From NCBI GenBank assembly GCA_963717045.1, contig CAVQVD010000010.1:342255-406254 (forward strand): 64,000 bases of DNA, given 5' to 3'. The stretch is from an uncultured delta proteobacterium (GTDB lineage Bacteria; Desulfobacterota; Binatia; Binatales; Binataceae). The position numbers and the translations under genes were made by a program. The notes under the pieces were generated by a model, which saw only the letters and a list, made by a program, of their open reading frames with translations, did no database searches and was not told where the DNA came from. How positions within the stretch are numbered: the first letter of the stretch is position 1; every line of letters starts with the position of its first letter. Positions 3,439 to 54,601 of the stretch are shown piece after piece.

Positions 3439-3727
3439 ACTGTTTGGCAAAGTGACCTGCGCGCCTGAGATGCGGGCCACGCCGACCGGAACTCCGGTGA
3501 TGCGGATCGAGTTGGACTGCGGCGAGGGTCGGGAGCCTTTGAGGCTGGGGGTCGTGATGATAGGGGAGGGCGCGCGCGAAATAGGCGGGCGAATCAGCGC
3601 CGGAGCGGCGGTGAAGGTAACGGGAACGTTGCGCACAGTACGCGGGCGGCTGTGGCCGTCGGCGGCGAGCGGGATCGAAGTGCTGGCGAGCGAGGTGAGC
3701 GAGGTCGCGGCAGGCGCGGGCTTATAG
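3419..3727 (+). CDS. priB: primosomal replication protein PriB / SSB-like OB-fold protein
   Basis: 102 aa. NRIELFGKVTCAPEMRATPTGTPVMRIELDC aligns with the PriB N-terminus. There is no acidic SSB tail. The gene sits between rpsF and rpsR, and its GTG start overlaps the rpsF stop. Confidence 0.7.
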   Translation: MNRNRIELFGKVTCAPEMRATPTGTPVMRIELDCGEGREPLRLGVVMIGEGAREIGGRISAGAAVKVTGTLRTVRGRLWPSAASGIEVLASEVSEVAAGAGL

Positions 3728-24453: not shown

Positions 24454-24529
24454 TGGAGGCGGCGGGCGGATTCGAACCGCCGAATCGAGGTTTTGCAGAC
24501 CTCTCCCTTAACCACTTGGGTACGCCGCC
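24454..24529 (-). tRNA. tRNA-Cys (GCA), CCA encoded
   Basis: The reverse complement reads GGCGGCGTACCCAAGTGGTTAAGGGAGAGGTCTGCAAAACCTCGATTCGGCGGTTCGAATCCGCCCGCCGCCTCCA. It has a 7-bp acceptor stem, a T-loop TTCGAAT and the anticodon GCA. Confidence 0.9.
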
Positions 24530-53982: not shown

Positions 53983-54525
53983 TTACAGCGGGCAGGTCTT
54001 TCCGATCTCCAGACCGAGCGCATGAATCAAGCGGCCATAGCCGACGAAGGTCACTATCCTGAAGCCCAGGTCGACGATTTCGCCCTCGGTGAAATGCGCG
54101 CGCAAGACATCGAATGTCTGCTGCGATGCCTGCCGATGATCGCCCGCGAGTATCGCGGCGAACCGAATCGCCGCCTTCTCCTGGTTCGTCAATTTCCGGC
54201 TGTTTTCAAAATCGGGTAGCTCGGCGATCAGTTCTTCGGTCAGTCCTTGTTGCCTTGCCAAGGCAAACCGGGCGCCCATTCACAAGGCGCACTCGTTTTT
54301 TTCCGCCACCTTAAGCCGGGCGAGCTCGGTCAGTTTCATGTTGACCGACCCGCGCGTGGTGCTGACCAGCGGGAAGTAAAATTTGATGAAGTCTTTGAAG
54401 ACTTCCGGTGCGTGGGCCAGAACCTGAACGAATCCGGAGCCGCCGAGCTCCACGTCATACTCGTGCATGACCGCCTGCAGTTCCGGGTCGACTTTGTCGA
54501 ATGGGATTGAACTGAGCCGTGCCAT
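53983..54525 (-). CDS. AhpD/carboxymuconolactone-decarboxylase family protein with in-frame TGA (candidate selenocysteine, CxxU)
   Basis: Two in-frame ORFs (81 aa and 98 aa) are separated only by the TGA at 54280-54282. The combined sequence LKVAEKNECAL-U-MGARFALARQQGLTEELIAEL aligns to the AhpD-core motif L-R-V-S-Q-x-N-G-C-x-Y-C-x-x-x-H...A-L. The TGA falls on the second Cys. Confidence 0.6.
54250..54266 (-). other. candidate SECIS-like hairpin 14 nt downstream of the in-frame UGA
   Basis: The mRNA reads UGA AUGGGCGCCCGGU UUGCCUUG-G-CAAGGCAA. This is a 17-nt perfect palindrome, giving a 6-7 bp stem with a G-rich apical loop. Confidence 0.3.
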
Positions 54526-54601
54526 CGGGGGTCCTCCATTGCGCGGAAGCGGTATGTTTTGCCTGACTTTATATCACGGGTCGGGAAAATGGTCGCTCTG
54601 T

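Follow-up and report, generated by a model that had tools for sequence, protein, structure and literature searches.

Gene Organization and Annotation

In the window (the whole 64-kb stretch of DNA that was analyzed), two open reading frames (ORFs) on the minus strand share one frame and are separated solely by a TGA at positions 54280−54282. The upstream ORF (54280..54525, 81 amino acids) ends in ...LKVAEKNECAL immediately before this TGA, and the downstream ORF (53983..54279, 98 amino acids) begins with MGARFALARQQG and is closed by a TAA stop codon at 53983−53985. Reading through the TGA gives a 180-residue product with the motif C79-A-L-[TGA]82, in which one single Pfam CMD domain (PF02627, residues 40−123, 37.3 bits compared to a gathering cutoff of 23, E 2.7e-9) crosses the TGA position. 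Both the ORF coordinates and the domain bear out a preliminary description of this DNA, in which the two same-frame ORFs were taken to be split by the TGA only and to yield 180 residues when joined.

The ORFs, the Pfam domain, tblastn alignments and dN/dS values point to a complete selenoprotein gene of the AhpD/CMD fold at 53983..54525 (minus strand, 180 codons and the TAA stop) with the predicted active-site motif C79-A-L-U82, where U is selenocysteine (Sec). A Shine−Dalgarno-like GGAGGA, read from the sequence at 54532..54537 (minus strand), is found 6 nt upstream of the ATG at 54523−54525, at which translation would start. Scanning the window in all six frames for two coding-like ORFs with just one TGA between them gave six pairs. 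Three were judged to be antisense frames with a first-position G+C of ∼0.85, one to consist of two adjacent acyl-CoA dehydrogenase genes and one of very short ORFs; with these five dismissed by judgment, 53983..54525 is, in our view, the only convincing in-frame-TGA candidate within the window.

In public databases, the gene is found as two proteins. The exact 81-residue half is deposited as “hypothetical protein [Candidatus Binataceae bacterium]” (a cluster of 143), and the exact 98-residue half as “alkylhydroperoxidase family enzyme” or “hypothetical protein” (a cluster of 188), the former also being the JGI name for the C-terminal half. The expectation that gene callers would split the gene is thus borne out by these separate entries. 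Three further entries (P0082, P0050 and P0013) begin as the C-terminal half and then run into unrelated sequence, which in P0082 is that of a small ORF of the window (53543−53899; KRATITLSDD...LTDRGYL); these entries are probably chimeric or deletion-derived calls.

Genomic Context

Upstream of the gene, on the same strand, an RND efflux pair is found, composed of a membrane-fusion protein (57763−59022) and AcrB (54602−57766; Pfam ACR_tran, 1027 bits). Between the end of the pair (54602−59022, minus strand) and the selenoprotein start downstream of it are 76 nt, an arrangement that is conserved only within the genus (loci L001−L012, see below). Downstream are the small ORF and a PIN-domain protein, an aldehyde dehydrogenase and two acyl-CoA dehydrogenases. 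No neighbor is conserved across the subfamily; the RND pump, the aldehyde dehydrogenase and the acyl-CoA dehydrogenase are common only to the genus, and the idea that the efflux pump and the selenoprotein are functionally linked was abandoned for this reason.

The PIN-domain protein (53127−53546, minus strand; Pfam PIN, E 2.8e-8) shares 4 nt with the small ORF upstream of it (53543−53899), for which no Pfam hit was obtained, and together (53127−53899, minus strand) they look like a VapBC-type toxin−antitoxin pair, flanked by the selenoprotein gene on one side and the aldehyde dehydrogenase gene on the other. Among the close relatives the pair is present only in L004, such that it looks like a recent insertion; in L003 the small ORF is found alone.

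Genes for the selenocysteine machinery (selA, selB, selD and tRNA-Sec) were found neither in the 64-kb window nor in a total of ∼0.5 Mb of sequence flanking the loci; the searches were made with ARAGORN for tRNA-Sec (window and 60 loci) and by tblastn with the E. coli proteins for SelA and SelB. Likewise, a Pfam search with 20 ORFs of the window returned no sel genes. The only tRNA in the window is a tRNA-Cys (GCA) at 24454−24529 (minus strand), downstream of a methylmalonyl-CoA mutase-like gene (21952−23907).

Homologs and the Selenocysteine Column

A genome scan in which each GTDB species was represented once yielded 80 loci, 79 of which include the TGA column. They originate mostly from Ca. 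Binatia/Binataceae MAGs, with an additional set from Gammaproteobacteria MAGs; L001−L012 are 91−95% identical to the window protein, and in 72 of the 80 loci the tblastn matches span residues 1−180. Among the window and the 79 species-level loci, the codon at the Sec column is TGA in 75 sequences, i.e., in the window and 74 other genomes, TGC in four and TGT in one, with no other codon present. The preliminary description had called for homologs with TGA or Cys at this column and had counted a sense codon unrelated to Cys as evidence against Sec; the 75 TGA and five Cys codons, with nothing else among the 80 sequences, agree with Sec. A column confined to TGA, TGC and TGT reads as a classical Sec/Cys pair. 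The same assignment is obtained from alignments to AhpD-like proteins in the PDB and to Sargasso Sea CMD selenoproteins (see below), which place the predicted Sec codon at residue 82.

For the window gene compared to its TGA-bearing orthologs, dN/dS is 0.008−0.14 in the N-terminal half and 0.04−0.24 in the C-terminal half, values that indicate translation of, and purifying selection on, both halves. Neither frameshifts nor further stop codons are found in the gene.

Among 5.8 billion proteins searched, 11 relatives are full length, and more than 100 further entries of ∼100 amino acids have as their first residue exactly the one that follows the TGA column. Nine of the 11 full-length proteins harbor C-R-L-C at the active site, and the remaining two (P0009 and P0011), which are public entries for marine gammaproteobacterial orthologs, display a Trp at the Sec column. 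A library clustered at 50% identity gives a similar picture: of its 38 best-matching clusters (E ≤ 1e-10), six are full length and 32 consist of fragments of 72−130 amino acids, most of these 32 starting at, or a few residues from, the residue that follows the TGA.

An RNA Hairpin Downstream of the UGA

Numbering from the U of the UGA as nt 1, a hairpin UUGCCUU-GGC-AAGGCAA is formed by nt 17−23 and 27−33 (7 bp), closed by the loop GGC at nt 24−26. This predicted bacterial SECIS element starts 13 nt after the UGA, at 54250..54266 (minus strand) of the window, and its assignment draws on covariation and on the position of the loop relative to that in E. coli fdhF. In the Binatia-type sequences (24 distinct), 99.4% of the cells in the helix are paired and each of the seven pairs is changed on both sides; the observed covariation was attained in none of 500 shuffles, and slid controls were 36−57% paired. 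Compensatory stems are UUCGCGC/GCGCGAA (L040, L041, L045 and L046), UUUGCCC/GGGCAAA (L044), GCUC/GAGC (L069), UUGUCCC/GGGACGA (L075) and AUCCCGC/GCGGGAU (L076). Synonymous sites within the hairpin stretch are almost frozen and flanking codons are free to vary, while the amino-acid changes that do occur across the hairpin keep the pairing intact.

In the gammaproteobacterial orthologs, the helix is displaced by 2−3 nt, to nt 15−20 and 25−30, and carries a tetraloop (GGUC, AGUU or AGGU). This gamma-type helix is 94.4% paired, displays two double-changed pairs and has a covariation score above that of all shuffles. Hence, in both types the apical loop contains a G and is located at nt 21−26. Neither the Binatia- nor the gamma-type helix is kept at the five Cys-type loci. 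These comparisons indicate that, within one orthologous gene, the register and loop of the putative SECIS element changed between Binatia and Gammaproteobacteria.

The validated SECIS element of E. coli fdhF, taken from the genome, has its apical loop GGUC at nt 22−25, compared to GGUC at nt 21−24 in the gammaproteobacterial orthologs and GGC at nt 24−26 in the window, i.e., the loop of the window hairpin is at most 2 nt from that of fdhF. Both elements are short, intracoding hairpins that immediately follow the UGA and are capped by a small loop containing a G. They differ in that the window hairpin is a perfect 7-bp stem with a triloop, without a bulged U or a conserved lower stem. In bacterial SECIS elements, the apical loop usually lies 16−37 nt from the UGA, a range in which the window hairpin fits.

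No SECIS-type family of Rfam matches the hairpin at either gathering or permissive thresholds, and weak matches to ALIL and HOTAIRM1_3 were taken as chance. The single-sequence local fold is no more stable than that of shuffled sequences (z = −1.15), and the minimum-free-energy (MFE) fold chose another helix together with a clade-specific hairpin around the UGA. Because the fold energy is not significant, the case for the hairpin rests on covariation. Accordingly, the search for structure after the UGA that had been suggested at the outset found a stem−loop that covaries as a bacterial SECIS element should, with no matching Rfam family.

The clade-specific part of the MFE structure is a second short hairpin, GCGCC(U)...GGGCGC (54271−54290, minus strand), which encloses the UGA in the window’s own clade. 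It is not conserved in other clades because their codons (CNL-U-MHA) differ.

Decoding of the UGA

Termination at the UGA followed by restart at the adjacent AUG (UGA−AUG coupling), with assembly of the two polypeptides, would fit both the two proteins of the public annotation and the observation that the TGA is followed by ATG in the window and 45 other loci (46 of the 80 sequences). However, 14 of the 80 sequences, including 13 of the 75 that bear the TGA, have a clear non-start as the next codon (AAG, CAG, AGG, CGC, ACN or CTA), which argues against a stop−restart arrangement, and 19 more have CTG or ATH, at best rare start codons. Inspection of the sequence upstream of the ATG that directly follows the TGA revealed no Shine−Dalgarno site comparable to that at the gene start. 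Furthermore, a split at this point would remove exactly the catalytic residue that the Cys homologs keep, the Cys-type orthologs are contiguous full-length proteins, and the covariation of the hairpin would be left unexplained. A truly split gene is therefore very improbable.

We assign an equally small probability to decoding of the UGA as an amino acid other than Sec, i.e., as Cys by a tRNA(Sec)-like tRNA-Cys together with SelB, or as Trp or Gly in a reassigned code. SelB-dependent insertion of Cys by a tRNA of this kind has been reported for some bacteria and is rare. It would need the same RNA element and hence would not make the hairpin dispensable. A reading as Trp is found in the output of some pipelines. 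Yet no ordinary stop codon is used more often in the window than TGA, which ends 12 of the 27 long coding-like ORFs; this usage excludes genome-wide reassignment, and the window harbors no other convincing in-frame TGA. In the case of P0009, the underlying DNA (L081:343−891, a contig from Tara Oceans) has a TGA under the “W”, which identifies this Trp as a gene-calling artifact produced by applying a code in which TGA is Trp; the “W” of P0011 is assumed to hide a TGA likewise.

A pseudogene or an assembly error, in which a Cys codon became TGA by nonsense mutation or was miscalled as TGA, is hardly credible. TGA differs from TGC and TGT by a single substitution, and Cys-type homologs do occur; yet 75 independent genomes belonging to two phyla share this TGA (these independent assemblies exclude the sequencing error that the preliminary description had named as a competing cause), dN/dS is far below 1 in both halves, which are free of frameshifts and further stops, and the downstream hairpin is conserved and covaries. 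The selenocysteine reading of the UGA at 54280−54282 is strongly supported by these comparative sequence data.

Active Site and Fold

The TGA aligns with the second Cys of the CxxC motif in AhpD-like proteins of solved structure (Atu0492, PDB 2gmy; PA0269, PDB 2ijc, 2o4d and 7xw1; and PDB 2prr), in agreement with what had been proposed from the single sequence. The redox pair of these proteins is accordingly represented by C79-A-L-U82, which falls on CAYC of PA0269 with the predicted Sec in place of the second Cys. The codon of Cys79, the first residue of CxxU, is TGC at 54289..54291 (minus strand), and a Cys is found at this position in all TGA-bearing loci except four. In AhpD, the relay involves Glu, Cys, (His/Tyr), Cys and His together with a water molecule, where the two Cys and the His are invariant and essential (PMC3141380). 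Glu67 (motif TEL), 12 residues before Cys79, aligns with the relay Glu36 of PA0269. The relay His is not found: alignment to PA0269 (CAYCVNMH) and Atu0492 (CAFCVDMH) places Arg86 at this position, as had also been noticed previously, in both the Sec and the Cys forms of the subfamily. With Arg86 in place of the relay His, AhpD-type chemistry is not guaranteed.

The Cys forms harbor a His three residues past the position of this Arg (CRLCKAARFAH), where the Sec forms have Leu, Val or Gly. The codon of the latter residue is located inside the putative SECIS element, so that either a constraint at the RNA level or catalytic adaptation could explain the difference.

A second conserved Cys is found near the C-terminus. 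Cys178 (TGC at 53992..53994, minus strand; motif G-x-T-C-P-L) is invariant in two alignments (A5 and A6) and present in 69 of 77 loci, including variants that lack Cys79. Its conservation makes it a candidate partner of Sec82, possibly as the resolving residue.

Among the variants, L066, L070 and L071 harbor the motif SAKP-U, in which the TGA and the hairpin are kept and the first Cys of CxxU is absent; in these sequences the C-terminal Cys is kept as GGPCP or GGTCP. In L075 the motif is GNGV-U-MC, i.e., the TGA and the hairpin are kept, the first Cys is missing and a Cys is found two residues after Sec instead. In all four loci, the motif lies about 240 nt past the beginning of the match.

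The fold was read from a structural model of the Cys ortholog P0001, which is 65% identical to the window protein. The model is all-helical, with a pLDDT of 76.7 and low confidence at the termini, and places the CxxC motif at the start of a helix (residues 80−92). A Foldseek search with this model returned AhpD-core or peroxidase-related proteins, with PDB 2prr, 2ijc, 2gmy, 7xw1 and 6k40 (D. radiodurans AhpD) at a probability of 1.00 and a TM score of ∼0.5; 3c1l belongs to these proteins as well, and the debrominase Bmp8 was also among the matches. To the extent that the model of this ortholog represents the window protein, these matches confirm an AhpD-like all-helical fold.

Compared to the Cys-type AhpD-like peroxidases M. 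tuberculosis AhpD and PA0269, the window protein has in common the all-helical fold, the aligned CxxC position and the relay Glu. In contrast, the second Cys is replaced by the predicted Sec, position 81 is Leu rather than Tyr or His, and the relay His that is found four residues after the second Cys in PA0269 (His55) and M. tuberculosis AhpD (His137) is replaced by Arg86. In addition, the window protein has an extra N-terminal region of ∼40 residues and the conserved C-terminal Cys178.

Relation to Known Selenoprotein Families

As stated in the preliminary description, AhpD-like proteins are among the known bacterial selenoprotein families; CxxU members of AhpD-like/CMD type were described in 2005 and 2008. 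The Sargasso Sea study (Zhang, Fomenko & Gladyshev 2005) reported CxxU selenoproteins of an “AhpD-like protein” family (COG2128, 27 sequences) as well as “CMD domain-containing protein” selenoproteins (Pfam02627, 4 sequences) (PMC1088965). In the GOS study, the families AhpD-like 1 (299 sequences) and AhpD-like 2 (70 sequences; pfam02627, CxxU) were listed (PMC2398784). A 2026 review includes a “CMD-like protein PF02627 CxxU” (PMC13188914), and both AhpD-like/CMD families are found in that review and in a 2026 database. Because the Pfam domain and the motif are the same, we equate the Sargasso CMD family with AhpD-like 2 and with the “CMD-like protein PF02627 CxxU”.

The window protein resembles the Sargasso CMD selenoproteins in the Pfam CMD domain, the CxxU motif, the column occupied by Sec and the hairpin directly downstream. 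It is 37% identical over 67 amino acids to AACY01688758 (...CNYuGNVRSASAKQQGLTEELI), with which it also has in common the Arg at +4 and the string QQGLTEELI, and 27% identical over 154 amino acids to AACY01102305, with Sec aligned on Sec. Since the identity to members of this family is just 27−37%, we place the window protein in a subfamily of its own. Strings typical of that subfamily (LAGDH, GYGRL and ARLAVAR) are absent from the 2005 Sargasso sequence supplement. The balance of Sec and Cys forms also differs, being 75 to 5 in the genomes that harbor the window subfamily, compared to 70 Sec and 207 Cys in AhpD-like 2 of the GOS study (PMC2398784).

With AhpD-like 1 (COG2128, TIGR01926, CxxU), the window protein shares the superfamily, the CxxU motif and the Sec column. 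However, its score against the TIGR01926 model (peroxidase-related enzyme), 49.2 bits, is below the cutoff of 81.8, i.e., it is not a member. Similarly, its identity to a Sargasso AhpD-like member is 26% over 99 amino acids, and that member has a His at +4 (CEYuIRAH) where the window protein has Arg. The best NCBIfam model, NF053654 (“GroundWater_YciW, YciW-related (seleno)protein”), matches residues 1−154 with 57.3 bits compared to a cutoff of 310, and thus the window protein does not belong to this family either. It is below the cutoff of every curated NCBIfam (seleno)protein model. A literature search for Binatia or Binatota in connection with selenocysteine or selenoproteins returned nothing.

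Proposed Function

From these data, it appears highly probable that the two ORFs constitute one gene of Ca. Binataceae, which would encode a 180-residue thiol−selenol oxidoreductase of the AhpD/CMD fold with a predicted Sec at the UGA. The protein is of a known kind, i.e., a CxxU AhpD/CMD selenoprotein, found here in a subfamily and a lineage in which it is not annotated.

In the proposed mechanism, translation would start at the ATG at 54523−54525, and the hairpin 13 nt past the UGA would act as a bacterial SECIS element that recruits SelB with Sec-tRNA(Sec). Insertion of Sec at residue 82, where it would replace the second Cys of the AhpD CxxC motif, would generate a C79-x-x-U82 redox center beside Glu67, which corresponds to the relay Glu of AhpD. 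Once inserted, Sec82 may attack a peroxide or an oxidized partner such as a peroxiredoxin and would then be resolved, as a selenenylsulfide, by Cys79 or possibly by Cys178. Judged from its sequence, the protein is most likely a selenol-based AhpD-type peroxidase or disulfide reductase.

A more far-reaching scenario, which we consider rather unlikely, is that the subfamily represents a distinct, Sec-dominant AhpD/CMD branch with its own catalytic design, in which Arg86 would stand in for the relay His, Cys178 would be the true resolver of Sec82 and the substrate may not be a peroxide. Resolution by Cys178 would explain why the SAKP-U members (L066, L070 and L071) have lost Cys79 yet keep Cys178, and a substrate other than a peroxide is conceivable because Bmp8, one of the CMD-fold matches, is a debrominase.

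A CxxU selenoprotein of the AhpD/CMD class adds conceptually little to selenium biology, where this class is established, and the features of the subfamily are mildly unusual: the preference for Sec over Cys (75 to 5), the Arg at the position of the relay His, the C-terminal Cys, the loss of the first Cys in some members and the shift in SECIS register. The findings imply that Ca. Binatia, an uncultured lineage of soil and groundwater, very probably uses selenocysteine. The subfamily is widespread, being found in at least 75 species-level genomes, lies outside all curated models and is systematically misannotated, being entered as a pair of hypothetical proteins and in at least one case as a protein with Trp. 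In addition, the hairpin sequences provide a natural SECIS alignment that is well supported and covaries in full, and with which SECIS models can be improved.

Tandem Paralogs

At 3591−4160 (plus strand), L040 harbors an additional AhpD-like gene, a tandem paralog that has an in-frame TGA of its own and in which the motif reads ...VHNACTL-U-RGAVYASARHQG. Tandem AhpD-like paralogs with an in-frame TGA are found also in L041 (near 3880) and in L044 (near 2600, minus strand), suggesting that each of these three genomes harbors two adjacent selenoprotein genes of the AhpD-like subfamily. The hairpin of the L040 paralog, AUGCCUC-GGC-GAGGCAU, is found in the same register as that of the main gene and displays further compensatory pairs.
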